A DNA stretch of 64,000 bases. Origin: Candidatus Doudnabacteria bacterium. Its GTDB lineage: Bacteria > Patescibacteriota > Doudnabacteria > UBA920. The stretch lies in NCBI GenBank assembly GCA_963837465.1, contig CAWINB010000004.1, positions 10,853-74,852 on the forward strand. The letters are read 5' to 3'. The notes under the pieces are model-generated. The model was not told the DNA's origin and made no database searches. It worked only from the letters and a program-made list of their open reading frames with translations. Positions 1,006 through 57,423 of this stretch are shown in pieces. The translations under genes were made by a program, and so were the position numbers. The stretch's first letter is position 1; each line of letters opens with the position of its first letter.

Positions 1006-1014
1006 CCCGGGCGG

Positions 1015-5679: not shown

Positions 5680-5689
5680 GCCATTGAGG

Positions 5690-7054: not shown

Positions 7055-7065
7055 GCCGCAAACTT

Positions 7066-7100
7066 AACACAAAGGGGAATCCTAACAAGGATTCCCCTTT
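7066..7100 (+). terminator. hairpin AAAGGGGAATCCT-aaca-AGGATTCCCCTTT (terminator / REP-like palindrome)
   Basis: Perfect 13-bp inverted repeat directly after the RNase J fragment stop. It shares the GGGGAATCC core with the hairpin at 7757-7797. Confidence 0.6.
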
Positions 7101-7139
7101 AATTATGACCAATTATGGTATAATAAATAAAATTAAACC

Positions 7140-7754
7140 ATGGGAGGAATTATGCAATATAGGGATTATAAAATTTTTAGGGCCGGCGAAATTTATCATA
7201 TTTACAATCGAGGCAACCATAAAGAACAGATATTCTTCGATGAACAGGATTATTTAAACTACATTAAACGTATAAAATTAGCACTGGGAAAAGGCTCCCT
7301 ATCCAATCTTAAGATCCGGCCATTTCCTGCAAATACTTTTAGTATCCTATGCTATTGTTTAATGCCTAACCATTTTCACTTAATGGTTAAACAAAATAGC
7401 GATATACCAATTAGCCAGCTTATCAGCAAAGTTTCCATCAGCTACGCAATGTATTTTAATAAAAGATACAATAAAGTTGGCAATATTTTTCAAGATGCCT
7501 TTAAGGCAAAGCTAATAGACAGTGATTCTTACCTGACTTATTTATCCGCCTATATTCATAACAATCCAGAAAATCCTCAAACTTACCCTTACTCAAGTTT
7601 TCCGGACCTTGCCGGAGATAGAAACGGAACAATATGCGATAAGTACTTATTATCCTTTTTTGAAAATAATAAGGAAACTTATAAAAAATTTATATTATCT
7701 TACAATAATTCTGACTATCAAAAGATTCAGCACCTGACTTTTGAAGAGGGCTAA
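7140..7754 (+). CDS. IS200/IS605-like HUH tyrosine transposase, REP-associated (RAYT)-like
   Basis: HUH motif CYCLMPNHFHLM and catalytic-Tyr region YLSAYIHNNP. About 200 aa, AT-rich relative to neighbours, flanked by related palindromes. Confidence 0.6.
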   Translation: MGGIMQYRDYKIFRAGEIYHIYNRGNHKEQIFFDEQDYLNYIKRIKLALGKGSLSNLKIRPFPANTFSILCYCLMPNHFHLMVKQNSDIPISQLISKVSISYAMYFNKRYNKVGNIFQDAFKAKLIDSDSYLTYLSAYIHNNPENPQTYPYSSFPDLAGDRNGTICDKYLLSFFENNKETYKKFILSYNNSDYQKIQHLTFEEG

Positions 7755-7756
7755 CA

Positions 7757-7797
7757 AAAAAGGATTCCCCTAGTGCTGCACTAGGGGAATCCTTTTT
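7757..7797 (+). repeat. REP-like palindrome / terminator AAGGATTCCCCTAGTGC-TGC-GCACTAGGGGAATCCTT
   Basis: Inverted repeat with A-run and T-run flanks. It shares the core GGATTCCCC/GGGGAATCC with the hairpin at 7066-7100 on the other side of the RAYT gene. Confidence 0.55.
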
Positions 7798-7839
7798 TGA
7801 GTAGGCGGATGGGGAGTTTTTTGGTATAATCTAAATACT

Positions 7840-8820
7840 ATGAACAAACAAGAAACTTACCTTGCCGGCTGCAGGGTTAGCGGGAAGCTGCATATTGGCA
7901 ATTATTTAGGGCTGGTAAAAGATTTGCTGGAAACACAACAGCGCGACAATTTACAGCGCTTTTATTTCATTGCGGATTTACACGGATTAACCACGCCGTT
8001 TGTGCCCAAAGAAATGAAGGCAAACGCGCTGGATGTGGCGGCCAGTTATTTGGCGGCCGGGATTGACCCAAACAGGACGGTATTTTTTTTACAAAATCAT
8101 GTCCAGGAACACGCTTCTTTGGCCTGGATTTTTAACTGCATTACTCCGCTTGGGGAACTGGAAAGAATGACCCAATACAAAGATAAAACCTCCCAGCACA
8201 AAGAAAATATTAACGCCGGGCTGCTTACTTATCCCACTTTAATGGCAGCGGATATTTTACTATATAAGCCAACCTCAATCCCTGTAGGCGAAGATCAGGT
8301 CCAGCACGTGGAACTTGCCCGTTTTGCAGCGCGGAAATTTAACCATCATTTTGGCAAAACTTTTCCCGAGCCGCAAACCTATTTAACCAAACCCCTGCGC
8401 ATTATGTCCTTAACCGACCCAACAAAAAAAATGAGCAAGACCGGGGATGAGGCTTTGTTGCTTGATGATGAACCAAAGGAAATAATGAGAAAATTAAAAA
8501 AGGCTGTTACGGCCAGCGAGCCGGGTAAAAAATCCCCGGGTGTGGAAAATTTATTTTTATTAATGGAGCATTTCGGACAAAAAGAACAAGTTAACTATTT
8601 CCGCGACCAGCAAAAAAACAACACTCTTAAATTCAGTGAACTTAAGGAAACTTTGGCCAAAGATATTGCCGAATATTTTGTCGAATTCCGCGAAAAACGA
8701 AAAGAGCTTCTATCCAGACCCGAATACCTGGCCGAAGTCCTGGGAGAAGGCAGCCACAAAGCCAGGCAAGTTGCCAGCCAGACATTACTGGAAGTAAAAC
8801 AAAAAATCGGCCTGCTGTAG
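7840..8820 (+). CDS. trpS: tryptophanyl-tRNA synthetase
   Basis: Class I HIGH-type motif GKLHIGNY and KMSKS motif KMSKT. Length 326 aa. Confidence 0.85.
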   Translation: MNKQETYLAGCRVSGKLHIGNYLGLVKDLLETQQRDNLQRFYFIADLHGLTTPFVPKEMKANALDVAASYLAAGIDPNRTVFFLQNHVQEHASLAWIFNCITPLGELERMTQYKDKTSQHKENINAGLLTYPTLMAADILLYKPTSIPVGEDQVQHVELARFAARKFNHHFGKTFPEPQTYLTKPLRIMSLTDPTKKMSKTGDEALLLDDEPKEIMRKLKKAVTASEPGKKSPGVENLFLLMEHFGQKEQVNYFRDQQKNNTLKFSELKETLAKDIAEYFVEFREKRKELLSRPEYLAEVLGEGSHKARQVASQTLLEVKQKIGLL

Positions 8821-8833
8821 CGGGCCGATTTTT

Positions 8834-10218
8834 TTATTTTATGTGGTTAATTAAAGAAGTTACTTCGTCAATTTTTTGTTTCAGCAACTCGGCGCTGTCA
8901 GCCTCCACGTTTATACGCAACAGGTTTTGCGTATTGGAAGACCTTAAATTAAATCTCCAATTGGGATAGTTAAAATCATAACCATCTATGCTGTCTATTT
9001 GAGCATCGCTGTATTTGGATTTTACCGTTTCCAAAACATCCTGATTTTTAAACTCAAAATTTATTTCCTCGGAAATATAAAATTTTTCCCTAAGCGACTT
9101 TAAAACTTCTGAAAAAAGCTTGTCAGCGGCGGATAAAATTTCCAGCATGGCCAAAAACGGCATCAGTCCATTGTCCAGATAAAAATTATCCTTAAAATAA
9201 TAATGGCCGGAAGTCTCGCTGCCAAAAACTGCTCCTTCCTGAATCATCCGCTCTTTAATAAAAGAGTGCCCGGCTTTGGTCATTACCGCGATACCACCAT
9301 TTTGCTCAATAACATAATCTATAACCCGCACCACGCGCGTATCGTGCACAATTTTGCCGCCCGGATATTTTTTTAAATAATATTGCGAGAGCAAAGCATT
9401 AATATAAGCCGGGGTAACGAACTGGCCGTTTTCGTCAAAAAAGAAACAACGGTCGCCGTCGCCGTCCCAAGCCACCCCCAAATCCGGCTTCAGTTGCTTT
9501 ATGGACTCAATGGTTTCCGGCCGGTTGGTTGGCAGCAGAGGATCCGACGGTCCTTTGGGAAAATTTCCGTCCAAATGGCCATTCAAAACTTTTATAAATT
9601 CTATTGGCAACAAGGTTTTTAATTTTTCTATGGCCGGATTAGCCATACCAAAATTGGCATTGGCCACAACCTTAAAAGCCTTAAACTTGCTAACATCAAA
9701 AGTCTTAAGTACGTGCTTATAGTAAGCGTCTTTGATGTCCTGTTTTTGAGCCGCACCTTTTTTATTGGAAATTGGAAATTGGAAATTGGAAATTACCAAA
9801 TCTCTAATCTCATATATCCCGCTGTCCCCGGAAACGGGAGCCGATTTCTCCTTCACCAATTTTAAGCCGCCATATTGTTTGGGGTTATGGCTGGCCGTGG
9901 CCATAATGCCGCCATCCAGGTCCAGATGAACAACGCCAAAATACATTTGGTCCGTAGAAATTAAACCCAAATCCAACACATTCACCCCGGCATTGTAAGC
10001 CCGCGCTCGGCCGCGTCCCTGAATTCTTTCCCGCATAAGCGCATATCATGACCCACTGCAATGTTTAATTTTCGCATCGGCCCGTCTTTGAGATCATTCA
10101 TTTGCAATAACTTTACATAAGCCTGCGCAATCTTATAAACCAACTCGGCATTAATCTGCGTAGGATAAATTCCCCGGATGTCATAGGCTTTAAAAATTGA
10201 CTGATCTATTTGTTCCAT
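8834..10218 (-). CDS. phosphomannomutase/phosphoglucomutase (alpha-D-phosphohexomutase), frameshift near 10020-10040
   Basis: N-terminus (MEQIDQSIFKAYDIRGIYP ... IAVGHDMRL) is in ORF 9982..10218. The remainder (TASHNP phosphoserine loop, GDGDR metal loop) is in ORF 8834..10036. Confidence 0.75.
9764..9797. repeat. heptanucleotide tandem repeat (GGAAATT)x4.5 inside the phosphomannomutase CDS
   Basis: attggaaattggaaattggaaattggaaatt. On the coding strand it encodes ISNFQFPISN. The unit length is not a multiple of 3. Confidence 0.8.
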
Positions 10219-10227
10219 AAAATACTT

Positions 10228-10665
10228 TTAACGAAGTTTTATCTGATGAGTATTGCCTGAGGTGCCTGCCTTTTTATTTAAAAATTCTTGATAAAGAAAG
10301 TAAACTTGCGCAAAGTGACCTAATTTACCTGTAAAAATAGTGCTGGGCTTACCTGGACCATTATTAATTTTTAGCGTTAGCCCGCTTCTATTAGACCCGC
10401 TGGCTTCTTCGCAAATATTTAAAGATAAAAGTTTAGCGGCAATTTCATTAACCGCAGGAAGTTTTTGGGATTTTTCCAAGGCGATACCGCCCGCAACAAT
10501 TTTAGAGAACATCTCATAAATTAATCTTTTTTGATCTGGCGTTAAAATACCCTCGCCTGCTAAAATTATTTTTGGCTTCATCTCACTTGCTGTTTTCTCA
10601 ACTTCCTTAGCGTATCTAATCCTTTTTTGATAATCCGCTTCTCTCTGGTCTATATATCTTGGCAT
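10228..10665 (-). CDS. hypothetical protein
   Basis: 145-aa ORF with no motif I can recognise. Confidence 0.3.
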   Translation of the reverse strand: MPRYIDQREADYQKRIRYAKEVEKTASEMKPKIILAGEGILTPDQKRLIYEMFSKIVAGGIALEKSQKLPAVNEIAAKLLSLNICEEASGSNRSGLTLKINNGPGKPSTIFTGKLGHFAQVYFLYQEFLNKKAGTSGNTHQIKLR

Positions 10666-10862
10666 ATTTTTAATAACTTTTAGTTTAGATGTAGCTACAG
10701 TTTAGCACAAAATAAAAAGCTCCGGTAACGGAGCTGCTTATTTTACTTTTTGTTTCATAGATATTTTGTCAGTGGTGGGCTGCGGATTTTAACTCGCGGC
10801 CCGCCACTTAGGCCTTAAGGCGGACGCTATTTAAATTAATTAATAGAGTCGGAAGTTGATGG

Positions 10863-38854: not shown

Positions 38855-40141
38855 CTATCCGCCAGCGGCCATTTTTTGATGTTCCTTAAGTTTAATGTTT
38901 TTAAATACTGCTGACTTTGCTTCCTGCATAAGTTTTGCCCATCCGTTATGGCTGTGGCCGGTGCTGATGTCATCCAGTTGTTTTTCCGTCCGTCCTGGGG
39001 CAAGGTAGCGTGTCCAATTATCCAGAGTCTTCAGTTTGGCATAGGGAGTTAAGTAAATATCATATTTTTTCTTTTCCTTGCCCTTATGGTCAACCGTGGT
39101 GGTGGCAAAGCCGCAGGGTCTGTGGAAGTTCAGGTAAGGGTTAAAAAACTTCTGGTAAAATTCGTTAATCTCCTGCGCGTAGGTTTTCGGGATATGAGTG
39201 TAGCCCATATACTTTCTGATGACACTGCCGTTCTTGCTTTCCACTAAGGCATTGTCATTGCAGTGCCTGCTTCGTGATTTTGTCTGTTTAATAACTAACC
39301 TTCTAAGAATATCAGCTACCGTGTAATTAATGTTCTCGCTACCGTTGTCAGAGTGGAAGTTAATTACTGTAAAGGGAAACATTTGCTGCAACTGTTCAAA
39401 TATGGGTTTTAAATGCAGCTCGGAAATCGTTTCCACACAGAAGACCATTTCCCATTGGGTGACTTCATCCACCAGGTTTAAGTGGTAAATACCTTTCTCA
39501 TACTTGCCCAAAGCCAGCTTACGGTCGCCCTGATGCACGGTATCCACCCGCAGATAGCCCGGAATGCCCATATTGTCGGGTCTTCTTCTAATACCAATCG
39601 GGGTGCTTACTGGATCGGTTATGGTAAAGGTGGTGGAGTGGCTGGTGTAAATTCTTTTAACTCGCAGATTGTAGATATGGGAAACGGAAATATCTTTTAG
39701 TCTTTTAAACCGTTCGTCACCGAATATTTCATATTCAGCCATTAGGATCTGTTTGGTGGCATGGGCATTCATTCGTTGGTGCAGATTATCGGTTTCAGCC
39801 AGCAATAGTATTTCTGCCGGGCCATAAACAGTAACAAACCGGTTTTTCTTGCCCCAATTCGGGGACAAGGCCACTAACCCACTTCCTCTCTTGTTGGTAA
39901 TCAGTCGTTTTAGCTGTCTGCCCGACATGCCGGTCATCCGTTGGATATATTCCTTAATCTGCCCCTTGTCTTTTTTGCCTTTAAGCCGGACATAGCCAAA
40001 CTTGTTTAAGACGTTGTTAATCCATTCATATTTCTCCTTTCTGGAAACTGAGGTAAAATTAATTGCTGTATTGACCTTTAGAAATTCCTTGATTTGAGCT
40101 ATGCTCGTAACGCTTAAGTCTGTCATATCGATTGTCATCAA
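38855..40141 (-). CDS. DDE transposase, integrase catalytic core (IS481/ISNCY-like)
   Basis: FHSDNGSE and CNDNALVESKN motifs of the rve fold. 428 aa. Confidence 0.65.
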   Translation of the reverse strand: MMTIDMTDLSVTSIAQIKEFLKVNTAINFTSVSRKEKYEWINNVLNKFGYVRLKGKKDKGQIKEYIQRMTGMSGRQLKRLITNKRGSGLVALSPNWGKKNRFVTVYGPAEILLLAETDNLHQRMNAHATKQILMAEYEIFGDERFKRLKDISVSHIYNLRVKRIYTSHSTTFTITDPVSTPIGIRRRPDNMGIPGYLRVDTVHQGDRKLALGKYEKGIYHLNLVDEVTQWEMVFCVETISELHLKPIFEQLQQMFPFTVINFHSDNGSENINYTVADILRRLVIKQTKSRSRHCNDNALVESKNGSVIRKYMGYTHIPKTYAQEINEFYQKFFNPYLNFHRPCGFATTTVDHKGKEKKKYDIYLTPYAKLKTLDNWTRYLAPGRTEKQLDDISTGHSHNGWAKLMQEAKSAVFKNIKLKEHQKMAAGG

Positions 40142-40957: not shown

Positions 40958-41032
40958 GGCGCTATCATCTAACGGTTAGGATAAGTGGTTTTCATCCACT
41001 AAATCGGGGTTCGACTCCCCGTAGCGCTACCA
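40958..41032 (+). tRNA. tRNA-Glu (anticodon TTC)
   Basis: Hand-folded cloverleaf. Acceptor GGCGCTA/TAGCGCT (one G-U). D-arm ATCT/GGAT with GG in the loop. Anticodon stem AGTGG/CCACT, loop TTTTCAT (U33, anticodon TTC, A37). T-arm CGGGG-TTCGACT-CCCCG. Discriminator A, encoded CCA. Confidence 0.8.
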
Positions 41033-41049
41033 AAGAAAATATTTATAAG

Positions 41050-41146
41050 CTAACGGTTAGGATAAGTGGTTTTTCCGCCGGAGGCGGACCCGCCTCCGGC
41101 GGGCATCCACTAAACCTGGGGTTCGATTCTCCGTACCGCTACCAAG
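41050..41146 (+). pseudogene. partial duplicate of tRNA-Glu (D-loop to 3' end) carrying a 30-nt palindromic insertion in the anticodon loop; probable att-site remnant
   Basis: TAACGGTTAGGATAAGTGG-TTTTT-[CCGCCGGAGGCGGACCCGCCTCCGGCGG]-GCAT-CCACT...GGTTCGATTCTCCGTACCGCTACCA. The 5' acceptor strand is absent. T-arm diverged from the intact copy 17 nt upstream. Confidence 0.65.
41074..41103. repeat. 30-nt GC-rich palindromic element, copy 1 (in pseudo-tRNA)
   Basis: TCCGCCGGAGGCGGACCCGCCTCCGGCGGG. 28/30 identical to copy 2 at 57030-57059. Confidence 0.8.
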
Positions 41147-42630
41147 ACCAAACTTTCAGACAATTTAGATTTATTTTCCAGGGCTGCCTTAAGGGCAGCC
41201 CATTGTGTCTGCGGGACAAATTCAATTTTTTGATTTTTTAAAAACAGGTTCGAACCGAAAATTTTTTGTGCAGCCGATTTTTTGGGGTGCAGTTCGGGCG
41301 AAAGCGTTATTTCGCCCAATTTTTCTGCGTCTTTGAGCCATTGCGTCAGGGGTTCAAACCAGGCAGCCCGCTTTTGTTCAAGACGAGCTATTTGCTCCTC
41401 CAAAGACTTCTTTTCCAAGACCAGGCCATTCTTCTGTTCCCGGTAGTTATCCCTCTCAATATCCTGGTCTAAATACATATCCTGAAGTCTTTGGAGCCTG
41501 TGGTCAATGTCCCCAATTTTTGACCGCAGCTCTTGAACAAAAGCCGCCGTGGATTGTGTTGATTCCTGCCGTTTTTTCTCGGCCATAATTAACAATTTTT
41601 CTGCCCAATCTTTGGGCATGACAAATTGCTTTAAAGTTTCTGAAAGCTTGCTGATTAATACCTCGTCCCTGACAAACGGCTGGGAGCAAACAACATTTCT
41701 TTTAGTGCAATGGTAATAGACATAACGGTGGATATTGCCATTTTTTTGTTGTTTAGTCCTTTGCTCGGCCGTAACCCCACGGCCGCATTCGCCACAGTGG
41801 AATAAACCACAGAGTAGCTGGGGATTATTTTTAGTTTCCTTATGCGGCCGACCCCGATAGGCTAAAACCTCTTGGACTTTATCAAACAATTGTTTGCTAA
41901 CAATCGGCTCGTGCTTACCTTGGTATAATTCTCCGCCAAAACGGAATAAGCCACAGTAGATAGGATTAGACAAAAGGTAGGAAATTTTATCCCGTTTGAA
42001 AAGCTTATTGCCTCTAGAAATTAATCCATGACTTTTAAAAAATTCCCCTATATCCTCCAAACGGGATTGATCTTTGGCGTACAGCTCGAAAGCGGCCTTA
42101 ACAATTAGGGTTTTTCTTTGGTCAATAGCTATTTTTTTAGTTCTTAAATCATTAATGTAGCCAATGGGAGCAAGTCCCGGATATTCGCCCCGTTTGGCTT
42201 TTTCGTGCATGCCACGTTTAGTGTTTGCGCTTAAGTCACGTACGTATTGGTTAGCTATTCCAAACTCCATTTGCATCATTAAAACATTATCAGCCGAGTA
42301 ATAGCTTTTATCATGGGTTTGAATGTGCTGGATTATACCCTCTTGCAACATCCAGCTAATTTGGGCGGCATCCACAGGATTGCGGGCTAACCTGTCCAGC
42401 TTCCAGCAAACTATGCCTTGAGCTTCACCTTTGTTAATGCGGACAAGCATATCAGTAAATACAGGGCGACCTGGTCTTTTGGCCGACTGTTTTTCAACAA
42501 ATTCGGAGGCAATATTTAAGCCCTGTTCTTTTGTTAAGGCCCTCAAAACAGCAAGCTGATCTTCAATAGACCGGACTTGCTTGTCTTCTACATCTGTGGA
42601 TTTACGGGCGTAGAGGAAATAATTTGGCAT
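41110..42630 (-). CDS. large serine recombinase no. 2
   Basis: Catalytic-Ser motif YARKSTDVEDKQ. Recombinase domain. Zinc ribbon CGLFHCGECG...YYHC. Coiled-coil. The last ~37 codons lie inside inverted repeat IR1, and the ORF runs into the pseudo-tRNA. Confidence 0.75.
   Translation of the reverse strand: MPNYFLYARKSTDVEDKQVRSIEDQLAVLRALTKEQGLNIASEFVEKQSAKRPGRPVFTDMLVRINKGEAQGIVCWKLDRLARNPVDAAQISWMLQEGIIQHIQTHDKSYYSADNVLMMQMEFGIANQYVRDLSANTKRGMHEKAKRGEYPGLAPIGYINDLRTKKIAIDQRKTLIVKAAFELYAKDQSRLEDIGEFFKSHGLISRGNKLFKRDKISYLLSNPIYCGLFRFGGELYQGKHEPIVSKQLFDKVQEVLAYRGRPHKETKNNPQLLCGLFHCGECGRGVTAEQRTKQQKNGNIHRYVYYHCTKRNVVCSQPFVRDEVLISKLSETLKQFVMPKDWAEKLLIMAEKKRQESTQSTAAFVQELRSKIGDIDHRLQRLQDMYLDQDIERDNYREQKNGLVLEKKSLEEQIARLEQKRAAWFEPLTQWLKDAEKLGEITLSPELHPKKSAAQKIFGSNLFLKNQKIEFVPQTQWAALKAALENKSKLSESLVLVAVRRIEPQV
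41140..41252. repeat. inverted repeat IR1, left copy (113 bp)
   Basis: taccaagaccaaactttcagacaattt...aaaaacaggttcg. Reverse-complement identical to 44463-44575. Confidence 0.85.
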
Positions 42631-42854
42631 AAATTTTACTCTTAAAAATTAAAGGGGCAGTCCTGGCTACCCAGCTCCACCAAAACGAGTTTGGATTTGC
42701 TGGCAGGACTGCCACCTCAATAGCAAAAGGGCAAAATAAAATCGCTTTGGGATATAGAACTGGGTAGCAAGGATATTATACCATATATAAAATTTTCAGC
42801 AATTATTTCAGTTAGTTTTTGGCAATTTCGTCCTAAAAAGAGTAAAATTTTAGC

Positions 42855-44375
42855 ATGAGTCTTTACGATAACTATAAACCACTAAGAAATAACCTAAGAC
42901 GGCTTGAACTTTTTGATTCACTGTACGTAATTTGGGCGTACGCCCAACATCTACAATTTGGCAATCCATTCCCAGACAATATTCAAGTATGGAATAAATT
43001 TGTAAATAATGCCACGGAAATGCCACGAGAGACGTACCTATCCCCTTGGGACTTAGAGACTTTAACACGCGAATTAATACTACACGCCCCTATTGGCAAC
43101 AACTTATCAGATAAAAGCTTGCGCAAATGGGATAATTTAGCTAATACAAAAAATAAATTCAGGGAACTAGAGAATCAAATAGGCGCAGAATTTGTGAATA
43201 AAGATAATATATTAATGGAAATGTTTCGAATTGCCCACCGGCAGTTTTTGTGGCAAATTCACCCAAGCCAAATTTATATGTACAGGTACTACAGAATTTT
43301 TGGTTCTGAGGAAATGGGAAAAATTGTAGAAAATAAACTGGGTGTCACTACATACAAATTACACCTCGTTGGTACGGCCCTATTGGGCCATTTTTTGGGA
43401 AGCAATATTTTACGTTACCCAATAAGGGTTGAAATTCCCAGCGTAAACGCTGACATGCTAAAAGAGGTAATAGCCTTAAGTTCTTCCGAATTAGAAAATA
43501 TACGGGAAAAACTTCAGGGAGAATCCACGTTGGATGAAAAATTTTCTTATGCAAATTACGCGTTACGGGCTCACCCACTTATCAAAACTAAAATTCAAGG
43601 TCAGGATGTACTAATTTGCCCATTGCCCACCCTTTTATATTGGCGGTATACTAGCGGGCTTTATTATGAACTTTACAATGAAAACGGGTTTGATAACGCT
43701 TTTGGTGGTTCATTCCAAAACTACGTTGGAGAAGTGCTCAGAAAAGCAAACCCCAACCAACAAGTTATCCCATCAATGAAATTTGATAAGACATCAAAAG
43801 AAACAATTGACTGGATTTTGTCTGAAGACGAATCGGCTTTATTCATTGAATGCAAAATGAAACGGTTGCCTGTTCCGGTCAAGATGGAGTTAAACAACAC
43901 TGGCCCGCTGGATGGACAACTGGACACAATAACAAATATAATTTTGCAAGTTTACAAAACTATTAAGGACTACAAAGAAAATAAATACCCAAATTTTCCA
44001 TACCAAAAAGATAGGGTTATATTCCCTTTAATTTTAACCTTGGAGGACTGGTACTGGTTTCCTGATGTCATAGAGGCAAAATTAAACACCATGCTTGAAG
44101 ACAAATTTAAAGCGAGCGGTATCCCTATAGAATGGCTGGACGAAATACCTTATTCACTTTGCTCAATAAATGAATTTGAGAACATGGCGCAAATTATTAA
44201 CAAAGTAGGTATTAAAAATTTTATGGACAAAAAGCTTACCAATAAAGAAAAGAGGCGCTGGCATTTTGGCCCGTTTATGGTTAAGGAATTTCCAAAAGAA
44301 TATTCTGCCAAAAAATTCTTGTTTGAAAAGGAATTTAACAATGAATTTCCAGTAAAGGGAAGCGATGTAGTCTAA
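42855..44375 (+). CDS. hypothetical 506-aa cytoplasmic protein with PD-(D/E)xK-like motif (candidate nuclease cargo)
   Basis: No signal peptide. The segment IDWILSEDESALFIECKMK fits D-x13-E-x-K spacing of the restriction-endonuclease-like fold. Otherwise unrecognised. Confidence 0.4.
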   Translation: MSLYDNYKPLRNNLRRLELFDSLYVIWAYAQHLQFGNPFPDNIQVWNKFVNNATEMPRETYLSPWDLETLTRELILHAPIGNNLSDKSLRKWDNLANTKNKFRELENQIGAEFVNKDNILMEMFRIAHRQFLWQIHPSQIYMYRYYRIFGSEEMGKIVENKLGVTTYKLHLVGTALLGHFLGSNILRYPIRVEIPSVNADMLKEVIALSSSELENIREKLQGESTLDEKFSYANYALRAHPLIKTKIQGQDVLICPLPTLLYWRYTSGLYYELYNENGFDNAFGGSFQNYVGEVLRKANPNQQVIPSMKFDKTSKETIDWILSEDESALFIECKMKRLPVPVKMELNNTGPLDGQLDTITNIILQVYKTIKDYKENKYPNFPYQKDRVIFPLILTLEDWYWFPDVIEAKLNTMLEDKFKASGIPIEWLDEIPYSLCSINEFENMAQIINKVGIKNFMDKKLTNKEKRRWHFGPFMVKEFPKEYSAKKFLFEKEFNNEFPVKGSDVV

Positions 44376-44462
44376 AGCCACGCGGTGGGTTGGGTGGGTC
44401 AAGTGGCTTTGCGTTTTGGTGTTAATTGCGTTCTGCGGCCCCCAAAAAATCTTCCCTGTTCC

Positions 44463-44575
44463 CGAACCTGTTTTTAAAAAATCAAAAAATTGAATTTGTC
44501 CCGCAGACACAATGGGCTGCCCTTAAGGCAGCCCTGGAAAATAAATCTAAATTGTCTGAAAGTTTGGTCTTGGTA
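44463..44575. repeat. inverted repeat IR1, right copy (113 bp)
   Basis: cgaacctgtttttaaaaaatcaaaaaattgaatttgtcccgcagacacaatgggctgcccttaaggcagccctggaaaataaatctaaattgtctgaaagtttggtcttggta. Exact reverse complement of 41140-41252 as far as I can align by eye. Confidence 0.85.
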
Positions 44576-44934
44576 CCTTTATTCGATATTTTACAAACCT
44601 ATTATACCCAAAACAGCTAATTTTGGCCACCCAATTTAGCCTGTTTTAGCTGCCAAAATTAGCCAGCTAGGTGGTAGAACGGGTAGTAGAACAGGGTTCT
44701 ACCACTAAAACTCATAAACCCCTTGATTCTATTGACTCTGTCCCAAACAAAAACCGCGGACTACCTACCACCAGGTAATCAACTGAACGACCAATACTAC
44801 TACTAACTCTAATACTAAAATACCTTAAAAATACTACTCAAAATACATAAATCTTAACCAACTAACTAAACTAATCTAAACCAAAACACAAAAAACATCA
44901 AAACCTAAAAATCAATACAAAAGGGTGTGGGGGG
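44572..44934. repeat. inverted repeat IR2, left copy (~362 bp), contiguous with IR1 right copy
   Basis: ggtacctttattcgatattttacaaacc...aaaagggtgtggggg. Reverse complement of 50620-50981 with at least one mismatch (T/C at ~44676). Confidence 0.8.
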
Positions 44935-45015
44935 TTATACGTCTAAAACCCCAAGGAAACAAAAAAGGATTGTTAAATTAGCGCCAAACGATTTATCATC
45001 AACATAGAAAAAACT

Positions 45016-45036
45016 ATCCATTGCTGGATAGTTTTT
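45016..45036 (-). terminator. hairpin CTATCCA-ttgc-TGGATAG with A-run/T-run flanks (bidirectional)
   Basis: Perfect 7-bp stem, 40 nt 3' of the giant gene stop. Confidence 0.5.
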
Positions 45037-45072
45037 TCTTACGCGCTCAAGCGAGACGTTTTTATTCTTTTG

Positions 45073-48000
45073 TTATCTTAAGTTGTTAATAAAACTTCTG
45101 GTTAGAGTGTCTAGTGCCCCATTATCGGCCTTAATCCCAATTTGCGTTTTGTACTTGTTTTGGAAACTCTTTAAAGCTGCTTTAGTCGCAAGGCCAAACA
45201 AAGTAGTTTCGTGTCCAGGAGAACCAATTGCTCCATTTGGGGCAACAGCGAAGTTATTATTGTTTAAGAACTGCTGCAAAGCCGTAACGTCCACCCCTTT
45301 GCTTAAGTAGCCAAGGTTTCGGGTAAAGATTATGGTGGCAGGAATGAGGCCAGTAGATTGGTTAGTTGCGGCCGGAGCTGGACTGGACAGAGCGGTTTGG
45401 CCCAGGACCTGGCTGGCTGTTTCTGACTCTATGGTATACGGGGCTTTGGAGCCTCTTAGTACAGTTAATTTCTCCCCACTTTGGCTTTGATATTGCTGGA
45501 AGCTCAAGAAAGTATCAAAAGGATATAAGCCATTAGGCTTAACCAGGTAGATAGTCGGGTTGCCTTTAAACTGTAATAGCTGGCCATCGTGGACATTGTA
45601 TGGTAGGACTACGGTAACAGAGGGTGATATATTGGTTGTTGGTGGAGTTGGTAATATTAGGTATGGAATGGATGTCGGAGTCGAAGTTGGCGATGGTGCC
45701 ACAGTTCCTGCCAAGGTCAGGGTGGTGAATGTATAATCTCCGGAAACATTAAACTGTAAGTTAGGGTCTTTAACCCTAAAATGGTACAAAGTGGCCGGGT
45801 TTAGGCTGGTTAAGATAAGGCTATGGCTTGTTGCGGGTGTAGAACTAGAAACAGTTGAACCGTAAGAGGAGGTTGTGCCATAGTCTACAGAGGAGCCAAT
45901 TTGATAATTGGTTTGCCAGGACACAATTATTGAAGTAGGTGTTGTATTGGAAACCTGGACGTTGCTGAAACTGGCATAAATAGCACCTCCGCCTCCGCCG
46001 GAACTCACTACATTCGTGGAGCAGGATACGGACACATTGGTAATGTTAGATGAGGCTACCGTACCGCTGCCATTAGTTACGTTACAGGTTTGGCCTGATG
46101 GCTGAGTTAAAACCGTAACATTGTATGTGCCGCCGGTGCTGGTGGCTGTGGCGAAAATAAAGCTAGTATTAGTTGTAGTGCTTATATTATTTCCGCCATT
46201 ATTCTGTAAAACAACAGTCCCAGTTAAGCCAGAAATATTACCGCCAATTGTGTAGGTAGGATTATTGGAACACGAAACTGAAACGTTGCTCACGTTCGCG
46301 GAAGATACTGTGCCACTACCATTGGTGACACTACAGGTTTGACCGCTAGGCTGGGTCAAAACAGTTACAGAATAACTGGCACTATTGTTTAAAGCTGTGG
46401 CAAAAATAAATGAGCCATTGGTGGAAGTGCTGTAGTTATCTCCCCCGTTATCCTGGAGGACCACGGTGCCGGACAGGCCAGAAATGGTGCCACCGATGGT
46501 GTAGGTTGTAGAAGAAGATTGATAAGCGCCAATATCGGGGGATGAACTGTAAAGGACTTGAGTACCGCTAGAATTTTTATAGAGATAAACCGGATTTCCC
46601 GAAGACCTAGTTATTGGACTAGCCAATGTTATAACATTGGTTGAATAATTAATTGAGGAGATTTGTACTGTAGTGGCTGAGCCTACCCTAATCCAGTCGG
46701 CATTTACTATCCCTGAACCATCGGAAAAGAACCCGGCGTCATTAACAACCAACGAAGTTCCAGAGCCTGTGTCAGAGTTCGCTACTGTTGTAAGGTAAGT
46801 TCCAGCGCCGCGGGCTGGGGAAGAATTTTGCAGTTGAAAATTCCCTGATGGTGGAGTGGCTACGTTTGTCAAAAGTGGATCTTGGTTAAGTACAACTCCT
46901 GATTCTGAAGACAAACTGCTCTGCCATGAGCCAGAATAGCCTTGGTTAAAAACAAGTGTGTTACCACTAATTGTAGGCGAAGAGCTGGCATCAGTTAAAA
47001 TATCATAATATCCATTTACAATATCGTTGTACAGAAGATTATTAAGCCACGCCCCACCGGTAGCTCCTACTCCAGGCATATAGTTCCAAGAAGCTGTATA
47101 GTCTGGTGGTAAGACTGTATTAATAATATCATTATTATAAACTTTTGATTGTGGTATGCCCTGACTAAGTACGAAGTAACCACCGCTTCCATAATAGGTA
47201 TTAAATCTGGTAATTACTCCTGTTGGATTATCAACAGTTGGAGTCTCGGCCTGTAGTAAAGAAAAATGAGTATTGTACTCAGGGGTGTTATACATGACGT
47301 TATTCTCCATCAGCAGATGAATTAATGGCGTCCCTGTAACGTCCCATGTTTGCATTCCGTCAAGATGGGCGGTTGTTGTCGCCGCATATGAATATGTTCC
47401 AGTAGTTCCGGCAAATGGGGTATAAAGAGTCAAGGATGTGCTACTGCTTATTGATAAAATAGAATATACAAGGCTACCAATTGAAATTGCGTATACATTA
47501 CCACCAGCCCAACTGGAATCAAATACTGTTCCCGATGCCCATGTGACTGTAGTGCTGCCATTAGTAACATTCACAGTACCCATGGTTGAAACAAAATCTG
47601 TGCTGGCGCTATCATGCCAAGTATTATTGCGCAACACATCGTAAGAGCCATGAACATGCGTGTAATCTAAAACATGCGAAATATCGTTTGAGTCAATCAA
47701 ATTATAGTTTCCATATACATCAATTCCATATGTACCGGACGCGTTATACCCTGCCCAAGAAATTGTGTTGTTGGAAATTGTACAGTAATTCGAATTATTG
47801 CTTGGGTTATACGGCGATTGGTTAAATCCTACACCAAATCCTCCGGTATAGCTTATAATATTATTGCTGACAATGACGTGTGATGCGGCGATAAGCTGTA
47901 CACCTCTCAACCCAGCCGCATTATGATTACCAATATAAAATCCTTGAATTGCAATATAATTTTGGCCTGACACTACAAAAGCATTAACTAGCACGGTGTC

Positions 48001-50040
48001 TCCGGTATGGGCTTGAAAAACAATAGGGTTACCCGAAATACCCGAGGCAGGAACACTGACTGTCTCTGAATATGTGCCCGCGTAAACCGTGCAGGTGTCT
48101 CCTGCTAAAGCAGCATTCGCACACGCCTGAATTGTTGTAAAATCACCTCCACCGGCTGATTTAACAGCGTACATAATGCCGCTTGGGGTTGCCTGACTTT
48201 GCATTGTATAGGCAGCCTTGTTGCCAGCCTCATCTTTGACCACAACATTAAAGTAATAGGTCGTAGATGGATACAAACCTGTCACGTTGAATGTGCTGAT
48301 GTTTTGGGTAAACGACTGAATAATACTACCATTTGTTTCGGCATTAGCTACTGTACTAATGTTACTACTGGTAGATTCAATAACTTCATACTGGAGGTTG
48401 GCTTGCAGCGAAACATTGTCCGTAGCCGCTGTCCAGTTAAGAGTAAGGCTGTGAGCCGCGACACTAGCTGCGCTGATTGCCCCGCTACTGCCCGGGACAG
48501 GTGGGGTGGTATCTGGCGCAGTAGTGGTAAAGGTTAAGTCCGTAGATGTAGCAACGTTACCCGAAGAATCAGAAGAAGCTACCTGAAAATGATAAAGGGT
48601 ACTTGTAGCCAGGCCAGTTAAAGTTATGGAGTGAGAAGTCACAAATGAGGCCGATGATGAAGCTGTTCCGTAACCGGAGGTTAGCCCATAATTAACTGTA
48701 GATGTTGCGCTTTCGTCAGTAGTCCAAGTTATAATGGCAGTAGTTTGAGTTGTTGATGAGGCTATAGAAGAAATTACGGGAGGGGTGACGTCGGCGCTTG
48801 TTTGACCGATGTAAGACAAAAGCATACGAGTAGATTGCGGCGTACTGGAAGGAGTGACTTGAGTATCATACAATGCTCCATTTGTGGGAGTAAATGAGCC
48901 TGAGGCCGATCCAGTAGTTGTCGCTGCGCCGGATATGCTAATTGGAAAAGTGGTTGAAGCATTGCCACCGTTCTCGCGCAATACAGTGGCCCAAGATTTA
49001 GTGTTACCTGGGGCACCAATAACTTTGGCATAAAGACCTACTAGGTTGTAGTCGGACCAGCCAAGTGTTTGTGTTTGAGTTTCAGTGGCTGAAATTGTGT
49101 TTGTGCCTGATAATCCTAAGTAATTAACAGCCGAATTTGAAGGCGTAGTATTGGCGATGGGAATGATAAAATCCCCGGTGGTGTTTGGAACGAAAACTAA
49201 ACCAAAAGCTCCTTGAGCAGAAGTAGGGGTACCGGAGGCTGTTTGGACAATATCTATAAGATCGCCTGGTACGACCGACACATTATCACCGGAATTTGTG
49301 TCCGAGAGAACGCCAGTACTGGCGGCATTAAATGTCGTAGCTAAAGTTGTGGTCGCTCCATTTTTTCTCAGAGCAAAAGACTCGCCATTACCAGAGCCAG
49401 GAGCAGCGGATAAGTAAGTGTATAAATGTTCCAAAGTCCCGGTCGCCGGAACTACAATTTGAACATTGCCCTCTGTCGCACTACCTGCAACACCTACTAA
49501 ACCATAGTATGTCGTGCTTGTAGCAAAATTTCCGCCTGTTCCTGACATAAGCACGGTCTCGCCAGCAGTTGTCGGAAGGAAATCCAACATGAACGAAACG
49601 CGCGCACCAGTAGCAGGAGTTCCACTTGGTGTAACTGAGACCGAGACTCGGTTACCGGCTGTAATGTTCACAGTGTCGTTTGTATCGGAACAACTTGTTG
49701 CCAAATCACTTATCGTGCAAGTTAAAGCCGTATTTGCAAGTTCATCGCGAAAAGTTATAACATAAGATTTGCCGGTACCTGGAGCAGTGTCAAGTTGCAC
49801 ACGTAATTTCTGTACAGTTCCGCTAGACGGAGCAATCTGATAAGCATTGATTTCAGCGTTCTGCGGGGGAAGAGCCCCAAAAGGAGAAAAATAGCGAACT
49901 GCTCCGGTACTAGTCTGGCCATCATATGACCCAAACCATTTAGACGGCAAACTGGCTGCCGAGGCTTTACCGACAAAGCTAAAAGCACACACCACAAAAA
50001 ATGCCAGTAAGGTTAATTTGTTGTTTAAAAATTTAGTCAT
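45073..50040 (-). CDS. giant (1655 aa) secreted surface protein: FN3 domains, right-handed beta-helix region, tandem ~80-aa repeats, C-terminal repeat module and peptidoglycan-binding (PG_binding_1-like) domain
   Basis: Signal peptide MTKFLNNKLTLLAFFVVCAFSFVGKASA. FN3-like IITWTTDESATSTVNYG...LYHFQV and IIVSWQTNYQIGSSVDYG...LYHFRV. Beta-helix repeats NNIISYTGGFGVGFN...ISNNTISWAG...IDSNDISH. Duplicated YTIGG.ISGL.GTVVLQ.NGG.N.ST.TN.SFIFATA modules. C-terminal LQQFLNNNNFAVAPNGAIGSPGHETTLFGLATKAALKSFQ. Confidence 0.65.
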   Translation of the reverse strand: MTKFLNNKLTLLAFFVVCAFSFVGKASAASLPSKWFGSYDGQTSTGAVRYFSPFGALPPQNAEINAYQIAPSSGTVQKLRVQLDTAPGTGKSYVITFRDELANTALTCTISDLATSCSDTNDTVNITAGNRVSVSVTPSGTPATGARVSFMLDFLPTTAGETVLMSGTGGNFATSTTYYGLVGVAGSATEGNVQIVVPATGTLEHLYTYLSAAPGSGNGESFALRKNGATTTLATTFNAASTGVLSDTNSGDNVSVVPGDLIDIVQTASGTPTSAQGAFGLVFVPNTTGDFIIPIANTTPSNSAVNYLGLSGTNTISATETQTQTLGWSDYNLVGLYAKVIGAPGNTKSWATVLRENGGNASTTFPISISGAATTTGSASGSFTPTNGALYDTQVTPSSTPQSTRMLLSYIGQTSADVTPPVISSIASSTTQTTAIITWTTDESATSTVNYGLTSGYGTASSSASFVTSHSITLTGLATSTLYHFQVASSDSSGNVATSTDLTFTTTAPDTTPPVPGSSGAISAASVAAHSLTLNWTAATDNVSLQANLQYEVIESTSSNISTVANAETNGSIIQSFTQNISTFNVTGLYPSTTYYFNVVVKDEAGNKAAYTMQSQATPSGIMYAVKSAGGGDFTTIQACANAALAGDTCTVYAGTYSETVSVPASGISGNPIVFQAHTGDTVLVNAFVVSGQNYIAIQGFYIGNHNAAGLRGVQLIAASHVIVSNNIISYTGGFGVGFNQSPYNPSNNSNYCTISNNTISWAGYNASGTYGIDVYGNYNLIDSNDISHVLDYTHVHGSYDVLRNNTWHDSASTDFVSTMGTVNVTNGSTTVTWASGTVFDSSWAGGNVYAISIGSLVYSILSISSSTSLTLYTPFAGTTGTYSYAATTTAHLDGMQTWDVTGTPLIHLLMENNVMYNTPEYNTHFSLLQAETPTVDNPTGVITRFNTYYGSGGYFVLSQGIPQSKVYNNDIINTVLPPDYTASWNYMPGVGATGGAWLNNLLYNDIVNGYYDILTDASSSPTISGNTLVFNQGYSGSWQSSLSSESGVVLNQDPLLTNVATPPSGNFQLQNSSPARGAGTYLTTVANSDTGSGTSLVVNDAGFFSDGSGIVNADWIRVGSATTVQISSINYSTNVITLASPITRSSGNPVYLYKNSSGTQVLYSSSPDIGAYQSSSTTYTIGGTISGLSGTVVLQDNGGDNYSTSTNGSFIFATALNNSASYSVTVLTQPSGQTCSVTNGSGTVSSANVSNVSVSCSNNPTYTIGGNISGLTGTVVLQNNGGNNISTTTNTSFIFATATSTGGTYNVTVLTQPSGQTCNVTNGSGTVASSNITNVSVSCSTNVVSSGGGGGAIYASFSNVQVSNTTPTSIIVSWQTNYQIGSSVDYGTTSSYGSTVSSSTPATSHSLILTSLNPATLYHFRVKDPNLQFNVSGDYTFTTLTLAGTVAPSPTSTPTSIPYLILPTPPTTNISPSVTVVLPYNVHDGQLLQFKGNPTIYLVKPNGLYPFDTFLSFQQYQSQSGEKLTVLRGSKAPYTIESETASQVLGQTALSSPAPAATNQSTGLIPATIIFTRNLGYLSKGVDVTALQQFLNNNNFAVAPNGAIGSPGHETTLFGLATKAALKSFQNKYKTQIGIKADNGALDTLTRSFINNLR

Positions 50041-50130
50041 CGTAAAAGTAAAAAATAAAAAGCGCCGTCAAAAACGGAGCTTAAATAAAAATATTAAGTT
50101 TGTATAATCGCAAAACTGGCGAGCGTGTTT

Positions 50131-50148
50131 TACTCTCTCTCTCTCTCG
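50131..50148. repeat. dinucleotide microsatellite (CT)8 about 90 nt upstream of the giant gene start
   Basis: tactctctctctctctcg in the 5' region shared by the giant gene and ORF 50176..50478. Confidence 0.8.
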
Positions 50149-50175
50149 TTGTCAGCTTTTAAAATTTTAGGCATT

Positions 50176-50478
50176 TTAGTTTTTTTCTGGTAGCCGCCGT
50201 AAGGCTTGGGATGTAATTTCTTCTAGGGTGTCGGCCGGTACTGGCTTGCCAAGTATTCTTTCAGCTAGTTCCAGCATTTTGTTTAAACTTGGTTGACTTT
50301 TAAATTTATTCGCTATAATTTCCTGAGCGCCTTCTTGGGCAGGGGTTTTATCCTCAGCAGTTATTCTGGATAGATGAAGCATTGTGACATAGGCGGATAA
50401 AAGTCTTGCACATTCTTCCAGATAAGCCTGGTTATCTTCCGGCCTGCGAACCAATTCTAGCCTCTTAGGATAATCCAT
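50176..50478 (-). CDS. hypothetical 100-aa protein, co-oriented upstream of the giant gene
   Basis: Intact helical-looking ORF (MDYPKRLELVRRPEDNQAYLEE...). No known motif. Confidence 0.3.
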   Translation of the reverse strand: MDYPKRLELVRRPEDNQAYLEECARLLSAYVTMLHLSRITAEDKTPAQEGAQEIIANKFKSQPSLNKMLELAERILGKPVPADTLEEITSQALRRLPEKN

Positions 50479-50619
50479 AATTACTACAACTATTTATACA
50501 AATATTATACTATAGTTTACGATTAAAGACCAGCATTTAATAGCTAAGGGTATTATGGTATAGTGTTTTGGTAATTTGGTCAGTATTTTTGGTCTTTGTT
50601 TCCTGTTTTCTGTCTTCCA

Positions 50620-50981
50620 CCCCCACACCCTTTTGTATTGATTTTTAGGTTTTGATGTTTTTTGTGTTTTGGTTTAGATTAGTTTAGTTAGTTGGTTAAG
50701 ATTTATGTATTTTGAGTAGTATTTTTAAGGTATTTTAGTATTAGAGTTAGTAGTAGTATTGGTCGTTCAGTTGATTACCTGGTGGTAGGTAGTCCGCGGT
50801 TTTTGTTTGGGACAGAGTCAATAGAATCAAGGGGTTTATGAGTTTTAGTGGTAGAACCCTGTTCTGCTACCCGTTCTACCACCTAGCTGGCTAATTTTGG
50901 CAGCTAAAACAGGCTAAATTGGGTGGCCAAAATTAGCTGTTTTGGGTATAATAGGTTTGTAAAATATCGAATAAAGGTACC
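50620..50981. repeat. inverted repeat IR2, right copy (~362 bp)
   Basis: cccccacacccttttgtattgatttttagg...ggtttgtaaaatatcgaataaaggtacc. Reverse complement of 44572-44934. Confidence 0.8.
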
Positions 50982-51336
50982 AAAAAAAATGCCTATAAAT
51001 TAAAAATACCGGACTCATTCCGGTATTTTTAATTACCCGGGCAACAACCTTTGGGTCAAAATCAATAATCCATTGAATACCGCATTTGTCTCTAAACATT
51101 CCAAGATATAAAATTTAAAGGTTCCTATAAAATTTAAAGGTTCCTGACACCTTTGAATTCCTCCTTACATGAATGGTTGTCAGCCGTGCCAGAATTAGCA
51201 AATTGTATTCTTTTAAAAAATAAACAGCGTCCATGGATTAGTAAAAATAATTTGCCGAATGATAACTTCGACAAAATTTTTACAGAATAGCTAGTTGGGG
51301 GCAGTTATTATAAAAACCAATTTTTTATAGAGCGAC

Positions 51337-56808: not shown

Positions 56809-57423
56809 TTGCGCGCAAATCCCGCAACCATGAACATAATATCTGCCAAATTTCTAAAAGGCGTAACCGGGCCGGACGAAAGCCTGGCGGACGGAATCCC
56901 GCAGGTGGCTTTTATCGGGCGTTCCAACGTGGGCAAGTCCAGCGTCATTAACACTTTAGCCAATAAAAAAGGTCTGGCCCGTACCAGTTCAATGCCCGGA
57001 CGCACCCAGGAAATAAATCTATTTTTGGTTTCCGCCGGAGGCGGATCCGCCTCCGGCGGAAATTTTTACCTGGTGGATTTACCGGGCTATGGTTTTGCCA
57101 AAGCCCCCAAAGATTTACAGGAACAAATCCAAAATTTGATTTACTGGTATTTTTTTGCTTCCGGTTACGGGCAAAAAAAAGTTGTCCTGATTATAGACGC
57201 CAACGTTGGCGCGACCAACAACGACATGGAAATGTTATTCAGCCTTAAGCAAGCCGATAAAGACATAATTATCGTGGCCAATAAAATTGATAAAGTAAAA
57301 AAAACCGCTCTTCAAAAACGGTTAAAAGAAATCCAAAATGTCGTCGGAGATTATAAAGTCATCCCCTACTCGGCTGAAAAAAGAACCGGGATAAACGAAC
57401 TGGCCAATGAAATTCTAAAATAA
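56809..57423 (+). CDS. engB: ribosome-biogenesis GTPase EngB/YsxC/YihA with a 10-aa palindrome-encoded insertion
   Basis: G1 VAFIGRSNVGKSS. DLPGYGFAK. NKIDK G4. The SAGGGSASGG insert between the LF and NFYLVDLPGYG segments is absent from typical EngB. Alternative start at 56830. Confidence 0.8.
   Translation: MRANPATMNIISAKFLKGVTGPDESLADGIPQVAFIGRSNVGKSSVINTLANKKGLARTSSMPGRTQEINLFLVSAGGGSASGGNFYLVDLPGYGFAKAPKDLQEQIQNLIYWYFFASGYGQKKVVLIIDANVGATNNDMEMLFSLKQADKDIIIVANKIDKVKKTALQKRLKEIQNVVGDYKVIPYSAEKRTGINELANEILK
57030..57059. repeat. 30-nt perfect palindromic element, copy 2 (in-frame within engB)
   Basis: TCCGCCGGAGGCGGATCCGCCTCCGGCGGA. Self-complementary over all 30 nt, centred on GGATCC. 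Confidence 0.85.

Follow-up and report, generated by a model that had tools for sequence, protein, structure and literature searches.

The 64,000-nucleotide stretch of Candidatus Doudnabacteria DNA analysed here (GenBank assembly GCA_963837465.1, contig CAWINB010000004.1, positions 10,853 to 74,852; hereafter, the window) carries, next to a pair of tRNA-Glu sequences, the gene of a large serine recombinase and two pairs of long inverted repeats (IR1 and IR2). The joint best explanation of this locus, to which we assign a probability of about 0.7, is an integrated island with an attachment site inside the recombinase gene, an integration reaction that swaps the tail of the encoded protein, and an intact, inverted spare of the attachment region retained within the island. 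On this reading, the enzyme would be a self-truncating serine integrase, similar to the 'suicidal' integrases of archaea but equipped with a built-in spare; the flipping of a segment of the element, its excision and the role of the spare are what we infer. The features that enter the argument are listed below, the repeat arms without a strand.

40958-41032, plus strand: intact tRNA-Glu (anticodon UUC; ARAGORN; Rfam tRNA, 59.7 bits), with a pseudo-copy 12 nt downstream
41044-41146, plus strand: degenerate second tRNA-Glu copy, spanning D-arm to CCA end and repeated in direct orientation relative to the true tRNA
41110-42630, minus strand: gene of the large serine recombinase, 506 aa as integrated (Pfam Resolvase, Recombinase and Zn_ribbon_recom)
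41140-41252: repeat arm a, outer left, encoding recombinase residues ~460-497
41140-41145, plus strand: core TACCAA of the left junction (attL), common to all three junctions
44426-44620, plus strand: spare 3' end of the recombinase gene, an open reading frame (ORF) ending ...LVLVPLFDILQTYYTQNS
44463-44933: inverted, unbroken copy of the attachment region inside the element (a' 44463-44575, core TTGGTA 44570-44575, b 44570-44933)
50620-50983: repeat arm b', outer right, with the core TACCAA at 50978-50983 (the right junction, attR)
50990-51043, plus strand: strong hairpin ending in a U-run, right half of the target site attB (minimum free energy -25.4 kcal/mol, z = -7.2)

IR1 (41140-41252 and 44463-44575) consists of 113 nt without mismatches, and IR2 (44570-44933 and 50620-50983) of 364 nt with a single mismatch (T at 44687 versus 50866). 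The inner arms of the two pairs overlap by 6 nt (TTGGTA, 44570-44575), and the same hexamer in the opposite orientation, TACCAA, is found at both outer ends (41140-41145 and 50978-50983). When 50620-50983 is joined through the core to 41146-41252, the resulting 471 nt are the reverse complement of 44463-44933 at 470 of the 471 positions, which argues for one repeat rather than two pairs. Thus, IR1 and IR2 are evidently a single 471-nt repeat, one copy of which has been split by an integration crossover. The locus has the layout tRNA end / a - X - a'b - Y - b' / flank, where X comprises the recombinase gene and a GapS1-like gene, and Y the gene of a 1655-aa surface protein together with a 100-aa ORF. 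Arms a and b do not recur elsewhere in the window, and exact repeats of 113 and 364 nt cannot have originated by chance within 64 kb.

An earlier, sequence-only reading of this DNA had reported IR1 as a 113-bp exact reverse complement, at the coordinates given above, and had noticed that IR1 brackets the recombinase gene and a 506-aa gene, and IR2 the 1655-aa and 100-aa genes; all this is borne out by the repeat and gene coordinates. The IR2 of that reading is real, and the mismatch that it allowed for is exactly one, but its coordinates stop 2 nt short at the core end. The GGTACC at which the inner arms were said to abut is present (44572-44577), but the arms share the 6 nt of the core and do not merely abut. 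The statement that IR1 and IR2 have no common core was wrong, and the two independent switches considered on that basis give way to the single split repeat.

The degenerate tRNA-Glu copy is devoid of the 5' acceptor strand and contains a 30-nt GC hairpin (41074-41103) within the anticodon loop. It yielded no tRNA call, even with the hairpin taken out; a search for a tRNA intron in this pseudo-tRNA produced only a spurious call, so that this candidate was dropped, and tRNA was the sole match in the Rfam scan. The 3' end of the degenerate copy (..CGCTACCA) is the left half of attB. Taking out 41146-50983 joins ...CCGTACCGCTACCA to AAAAAATGCC, followed by the hairpin and the U-run, and the reconstructed empty site would read ..CGCTACCAAAAAAAATGCC... 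Because this removal brings the tRNA 3' end and the terminator hairpin back together, a sensible target site is recovered, and the segment 41140-50983 is, by all appearances, an element of 9,844 bp, inserted behind the CCA end (tRNA positions ~72-76) of the tRNA-Glu pseudo-copy. The hairpin is probably the tRNA's own terminator, which the insertion would have displaced by 9.8 kb. The previous description of the locus as a mobile element that is associated with a tRNA and encodes a large serine recombinase stands, except that the element abuts the degenerate second tRNA-Glu copy and not the intact gene.

Two further observations concern the surroundings of the target. The hairpin in the pseudo-tRNA has a perfect 13-bp stem (CCGCCGGAGGCGG ACC CCGCCTCCGGCGG), and a second copy of the palindrome lies at 57032-57059, inside or beside a GTPase gene (56809-57423), which makes it a candidate for a small, mobile palindromic repeat. 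A transposase gene with weak matches to the rve/IS481-IS3-like type (38855-40141, minus strand) directly precedes the tRNA-Glu pair, and given this adjacency, the tRNA region looks like a hotspot of mobile DNA.

The predicted recombinase contains a PF00239 resolvase domain (E 2.6e-22) and matches PF07508 and PF13408 above the Pfam cut-offs. It has the YxRKSTD serine motif, with S11 invariant across 30 relatives, and four zinc-ribbon cysteines (C279, C282, C308 and C315) that are invariant across relatives as well. The structure model shows long helices at 340-420, and the nearest solved structures are those of the A118 and SPbeta integrases. The best NCBIfam matches, CcrB, CcrC and XisF, all lie far under the family cut-offs. 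Taken together, the protein is classified here as a large serine recombinase of its own predicted family, in no named subfamily. A search of IMG/VR yielded no close relative of the recombinase (best identity 32%), and a phage origin was dropped on this account.

The split of the repeat falls inside the recombinase gene. IR1 covers recombinase codons ~460-497; the last 9 codons (AVRRIEPQV), which are antisense to the tRNA-like T-arm, and the stop codon (41110-41139) lie outside, in tRNA-like sequence. In the internal copy, the codons at 44576-44620 encode a different, native C-terminal tail, PLFDILQTYYTQNS, followed by a stop, such that the core is located 14 codons before the native end of the gene. 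The sequence-only reading had placed the last ~37 recombinase codons in IR1, which is correct for codons ~460-497 but not for the final 9 codons and the stop. The alternative coding end that it saw at the far repeat is there, and it was right that inversion across IR1 would exchange the C-terminus of the recombinase, the spare ORF carrying the other coding end.

This architecture is not a peculiarity of one contig. The recombinase has 4,654 homologues at E < 1e-20, and a scan of the GTDB species-representative genomes identified at least 578 relatives, of which the best 80 loci were examined; nearly all of these are labelled as metagenome-assembled genomes of Patescibacteria or the Candidate Phyla Radiation (CPR). 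A literature search found no description of the recombinase family, which is apparently large, undescribed and at home in ultra-small CPR bacteria. In 60 of the 80 loci, the last 44-187 nt of the recombinase gene (median 141) are repeated, in inverted orientation, upstream of the gene. The near-100% identity of the arms, earlier taken as a sign of exchange, holds in the window but is not universal: in the relatives, IR1-type arms are 86-100% identical (100% in 21 loci and <93% in 20). Where the gene end is complete and more than 2.5 kb of upstream sequence are available (29 loci), the spare repeat is present in 25. At least 13 loci have a second inverted pair that abuts the first one with a 3-6-nt overlap, and 31 further loci are on contigs that end no more than 145 nt past the upstream arm, often at about the assembler k-mer length, conceivably because a second, unresolved repeat would break the assembly.

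The target is equally consistent. In 42 loci, the arm on the gene side extends 0-10 nt into the 3' end of an antisense tRNA; these tRNAs belong to 12 isotypes and have 22 different anticodons. The cores shared in complete relatives (GTG, GAG, GGTG, GTGA, TGGTG and TGGAG) map to tRNA positions ~72-76, and most of the relatives' cores contain no palindromic dinucleotide, so that the internal site genuinely has the opposite orientation to the outer two. A shared core and a sensible site upon removal of the element were also found in 11 relatives; in the relative L064, the reconstructed site has a 16-nt spacer between a tRNA-Val and the tRNA gene that follows. Three loci (L042, L058 and L059) have a decayed a-like remnant outside the outer b arm, which would indicate successive insertions at one tRNA. 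Recombinase modules with 86-90% nucleotide identity occupy different tRNAs with different neighbours, i.e. L034 (Gly) and L063 (Val), L046 (Lys), L066 (Val) and L080 (Ile), and L028 (Gln) and L049 (Asn), with the homology limited to a'-recombinase-a. Such similar modules at different tRNAs point to mobility and not to a fixed switch. A protein identical to the window recombinase (P0001) is encoded on an 868,218-bp contig, alongside a 66%-identical paralogue with a tRNA-type tail (P0014), and the source genome appears to hold this second recombinase of the family.

The two alternative ends of the gene differ in kind. The family-wide C-terminal consensus, ...ILVxxxGIEP, is the antisense of a tRNA T-arm, and the tRNA-encoded tails range from 8 to more than 50 residues. 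Across the a/b junction, in contrast to these tails, the frame continues for 13-16 codons with the pattern L-Y-N-x-A-R-T-Y-F-x-x-N-x-stop, in which, among 42 loci, R and F are each present in 40 and T in 41. Different synonymous codons are in use (Arg CGA/AGA/CGC/CGT; Thr ACC/ACT; Phe TTT/TTC; Asn AAT/AAC), and the conservation drops away right past the native stop. Conserved residues, synonymous variation and the collapse past the stop together make up a protein-coding signature, and the 45 b-proximal nt accordingly code for the native C-terminus of the recombinase. In P0006, a homologue with a native tail, AlphaFold places the tail in a confidently predicted terminal helix (residues 499-517, predicted local distance difference test score, pLDDT, ~90); in the structure model of the integrated form from the window, the tail is an unstructured coil (pLDDT ~50). 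The conserved tail is replaced in all integrated copies.

Recombinases with the native tail have been found, and they have a characteristic distribution. The tail is kept in ~15 of the 120 best homologues, all of them on contigs of no more than 13.6 kb; roughly a third of the tRNA-tail proteins come from longer contigs, of up to 899 kb. By a rough binomial estimate, the probability of such a restriction to small contigs is P ~1e-3. One of the native-tail contigs, L113 (5.8 kb), has the layout b'a'-X-ab; its terminal inverted repeat is perfect over 288 nt, its recombinase has the native tail, and it does not branch to a tRNA, as would be expected of a free circle. Another, L112 (13.6 kb), reads as a chain, a'-X1 (native tail)-a/b-Y-b'/a'-X2, with its left end exactly at the core. 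In several native-tail loci, an XRE-type or HTH_17 gene lies upstream of the recombinase in divergent orientation.

These observations establish a site-specific insertion at the end of a tRNA, a conserved inverted copy of the attachment region within the element and the loss of the terminal helix from integrated copies, and they can be accommodated by the following scheme. The free element would be a circle, in which two inverted 471-bp a/b copies divide X from Y. The recombinase would recombine the a/b copy at its own 3' end, acting as attP, with the tRNA end; integration would split this copy between the two ends of the element, creating the apparent IR1 and IR2, and would swap the conserved helical tail for meaningless antisense-tRNA codons. 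The second a/b copy would stay whole inside the element, a full attachment site and native gene end in inverted orientation. The loss of the tail may lock the element in place, by analogy with the archaeal 'suicidal' integrases, and recombination between the a arms, catalysed either by the host homologous recombination machinery or by the recombinase, would flip X, rebuild the full-length gene and re-enable excision. A more ambitious version of this scheme portrays the family as Patescibacteria-wide, minimal cargo islands, with an integrase for the universal tRNA 3' end, whose terminal helix is removed by integration, and with an inverted spare that makes the suicide reversible, the flip of X licensing excision. 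This generalization is tentative and, in our estimate, possible rather than probable; if true, it would represent a new form of directionality control in large serine recombinases, without a separate directionality factor.

Several points weigh against the scheme. The spare is absent in 4 of the 29 well-sampled loci. Two identical copies in the circle would predict an intact tail in half of the integrations; no such chromosomal forms were seen, so that their instability must be assumed, and the lack of chromosomal native-tail copies fits such states being short-lived. Known large serine recombinases, to our knowledge, do not recombine attP with attL, attR or attP; therefore, flipping driven by the recombinase itself would be unorthodox. 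No directionality factor was identified, and pattern scans for the attP junction in genome contigs and for the empty site and the a arm in metagenome contigs returned 0 hits. An attempt at placing the crossover revealed only weak dyad symmetry at the site (35% complementary). In the window, the native tail PLFDILQTYYTQNS departs from the family consensus, and given this divergence, the window copy may be decaying. Lastly, the model does not explain a conserved 9-11-nt insertion in the spare arms of ~20 loci (including L014, L022, L036, L042, L044, L048, L075 and L079). The insertion is of two types, TTTGTATTGTG or TTTTGAATTTTG, between TTCGGC(T) and CGAACCTC, and sits at the F-G/S-N-L codons, precisely where the perfect IR1 of the window ends (41252/44463). 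It breaks a T-loop-like GGTTCGA motif on the opposite strand, within flanks that are ~100% identical between the arms.

The spare might instead be a recombinase-binding operator or regulatory region of the same kind of island, or else the second site of a flip-flopping circle similar to the 2-micron plasmid. The spare invariably precedes the recombinase module, and a distance of only 60-225 nt to the start codon is common; b contains a promoter-like site, and there are iteron-like repeats just past the native stop; the conserved insertion sets the spare apart from the gene arm; and the ratio of nonsynonymous to synonymous differences (pN/pS) between the arms, 0.42, does not betray strong constraint. 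An operator, however, needs ~50 bp, compared with a near-identical, coding-derived arm of 113-187 nt plus a b segment of 120-364 nt, and the absence of stop codons from every spare, along with the conservation of the native tail at the protein level, is hard to reconcile with a purely regulatory region. No conserved start codon was found for a small protein made from the spare copy. We consider this interpretation of the spare improbable. The phase-variable or shufflon-like module proposed in the sequence-only reading, i.e. two recombinase-driven invertible segments that form a resident switch of the surface protein and of the recombinase C-terminus, is in our judgement decidedly improbable. 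The three sites do alternate in orientation around one shared core, with identical inner half-sites such that inversion would regenerate the sites, and the similarity of the arms within a locus implies exchange; moreover, tRNA transcription would enter the element, so that orientation could matter, and the promoter-like site in b faces the core. The comparison of relatives that was suggested as a check on orientation polymorphism gives the opposite picture: the recombinase faces the tRNA in all 42 loci with an antisense tRNA, and none of the 60 IR1 loci has a flipped X. The Y segments hold unrelated cargo in different elements (enzymes, transporters, toxin genes, retroelements), and the 1655-aa gene is preceded, within Y, by 580 nt of upstream sequence of its own. 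Inversion of X would swap the recombinase tail, and nothing comparable is evident for the surface-protein gene. Closely related modules at different tRNAs attest to mobility, and the enzyme is an integrase-type large serine recombinase rather than a Hin/Gin-type invertase.

Two more prosaic explanations fare worse. Each window segment can be written as CC...GG with TA flanks, as if two separate transposon-like elements with terminal inverted repeats (113-nt ends for X and 364-nt ends for Y) had inserted side by side at TA. This arrangement was rejected, as very unlikely, on the non-palindromic cores of the relatives; an inverted middle site is incompatible with two simple insertions, and neither arm recurs in the window. 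An assembly artefact, that is, a chimeric or fold-back mis-join generating false inverted duplications, could come to mind because the arms are nearly perfect and the related assemblies often break at the repeats. However, the same architecture is found in dozens of independent assemblies from various laboratories and assemblers, the arms are only 86-93% identical in 20 loci, the flanks reconstruct a sensible tRNA-terminator site, and the structure sits in the middle of the window; the diverged arms across many independent assemblies exclude such an artefact for practical purposes, and we find it barely credible.

Arm b has some additional features of its own. The promoter-like site, TGGCCA-17-TATAAT, is at 44601-44629 on the minus strand and at 50924-50952 on the plus strand; its internal copy would transcribe toward X, and the outer copy out of the element. 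The -10 box shares nucleotides with the tail codons T-Y-Y/F, read in antisense, and is TAAAAT in most relatives. Past the native stop (44616-44705, mirrored at 50848-50937), b contains a 12-bp inverted repeat (GCTAATTTTGGC/GCCAAAATTAGC) and two direct copies plus one inverted copy of GGTAGAAC. The same two-direct-one-inverted pattern, made of different sequences, follows the recombinase stop in L111-L113. These repeats may be a protein-binding site or a terminator.

Among the known systems, the closest in enzyme architecture are the elements with large serine recombinases (phiC31, Bxb1, A118 and SPbeta; SCCmec with CcrAB/CcrC; XisF), with which the island also shares junctions that are identical over only a few bases (here, cores of 3-6 nt). 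Furthermore, b, the P-type half-site, has TCGAACC in common with the tRNA half-site, where the motif belongs to the T-loop and lies ~4 nt closer to the core. This offset recalls the difference in spacing between the attP and attB sites of large serine integrases, for which the Van Duyne/Rutherford model is said to provide a rule. Unlike these elements, the recombinases described here match the NCBIfam families only far under the cut-offs, target the generic 3' end of many tRNAs, cross over inside their own ORF, and conserve a second, inverted attP copy within the element.

Segments bounded by inverted sites, a recombinase gene beside or inside them, and coding ends exchangeable by inversion are familiar from Hin/Gin/Cin/Pin and the R64 shufflon. 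Inversion in those systems, however, is the work of small serine invertases aided by an enhancer, or of the tyrosine recombinase Rci. It takes place at sites of 19-34 bp, which do not mobilize the loci, and both orientations are easily observed. In the yeast 2-micron plasmid, FLP acts on FRT inside 599-bp inverted repeats, and pSM19035-type plasmids combine long inverted repeats with the beta recombinase. The circle proposed here would resemble both, in that long inverted repeats with a recombinase target split it into two unique segments; those are replicating plasmids that flip for copy-number amplification or resolution, whereas the element in the window is integrated and has no replication genes, and its flipping is hypothetical. 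In the myxophage Mx8, attP is likewise part of the int gene, such that the tyrosine integrase, IntP, acquires a different gene 3' end and C-terminus upon integration, as suggested here; IntP has a specific target and no inverted spare copy, so that the differences lie in enzyme type, spare and target.

The 'suicidal' tyrosine integrases of the SSV type, in which integration disrupts the gene and is thought to lock the element, are known only in Archaea (PMC8371274). The integrases of SSV1, pTN3 and pT26-2 resemble the present one in having the attachment site within the integrase gene and a tRNA gene as the target. The differences are that a serine recombinase in Bacteria (Patescibacteria) is involved here, as opposed to an archaeal tyrosine recombinase of the SSV1 subfamily, and that only the last 13-16 codons are exchanged, with an inverted spare of the lost end, instead of a gene split in two. 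In ecology, the family resembles the tycheposons of Prochlorococcus, small tRNA-inserting cargo elements that accumulate in tandem and leave degenerate remnants (10.1101/2020.12.28.424599). Unlike this family, tycheposons mostly encode tyrosine recombinases, use one tRNA each, are flanked by partial tRNA copies and have no internal inverted attachment copy.

The genomes of CPR/Patescibacteria are tiny, and gene exchange among these bacteria is poorly understood. The family may be a major vehicle of their accessory genes, including surface proteins, defence genes, diversity-generating retroelements and transporters. It stands out by the recognition of a generic tRNA 3' end, the editing of its own gene by integration and the inverted back-up copy. 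'Suicidal' integration, held to be confined to Archaea (PMC8371274), would thereby reach bacteria and serine chemistry. These features also suggest that directionality could be controlled through the structure of a gene, and they offer compact recombinases whose target is predictable and universally present; the repeats account for the breaks beside tRNA genes in many CPR assemblies. Should the spare prove to be a reversible lock, interest would be high.

The window element carries three cargo genes.

42855-44375, plus strand: 506-aa protein, distant relative of the antiphage family GapS1 (NCBIfam NF047931, E 3e-19, below the cut-off)
45073-50040, minus strand: 1655-aa secreted or surface protein with fn3-type repeats and a C-terminal PG_binding_1 domain
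50176-50478, minus strand: ORF of 100 aa without a family match

The 506-aa gene, which also has a faint DUF4143 match, is probably defence cargo; PADLOC gave no match in the window cargo. When searched with tblastn against the other family loci (80), the 506-aa and 100-aa genes had no homologue; a partial homologue of the 1655-aa gene lies beside the element in L035. Domain and family scans detected no replication gene in X or Y of the window. In the relatives, the cargo includes an M23 peptidase with CBM96, DUF2207, LemA and RDD membrane proteins, a GNAT giant protein, AbiEii, a diversity-generating retroelement, ABC transporters, and glycosyl- and methyl-transferases. Diversity-generating retroelements are found as cargo in two unrelated members (L068, 3900-7957, and L111, 1133-4175), with RVT_1, bAvd and a Fib_succ_major target gene; L111 has a 178-nt direct repeat similar to a template repeat/variable repeat pair. 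Among the elements examined, only L112 encodes Replic_Relax, TraG/VirD4-like and VirB4-like (DUF87) proteins (5991-10718), which suggests that some family members are mobilisable or conjugative.

At the far end of the window, positions 1-7000 differ from the rest in base composition (59-71% GC versus 36-55%) and contain fragmented genes, namely SBP_bac_5 as two ORFs, a truncated aromatic lyase, a partial nitroreductase and TetR. An IS200-like Y1 transposase gene (7140-7754) follows this GC-rich segment, which could be decayed foreign DNA or a chimeric join.

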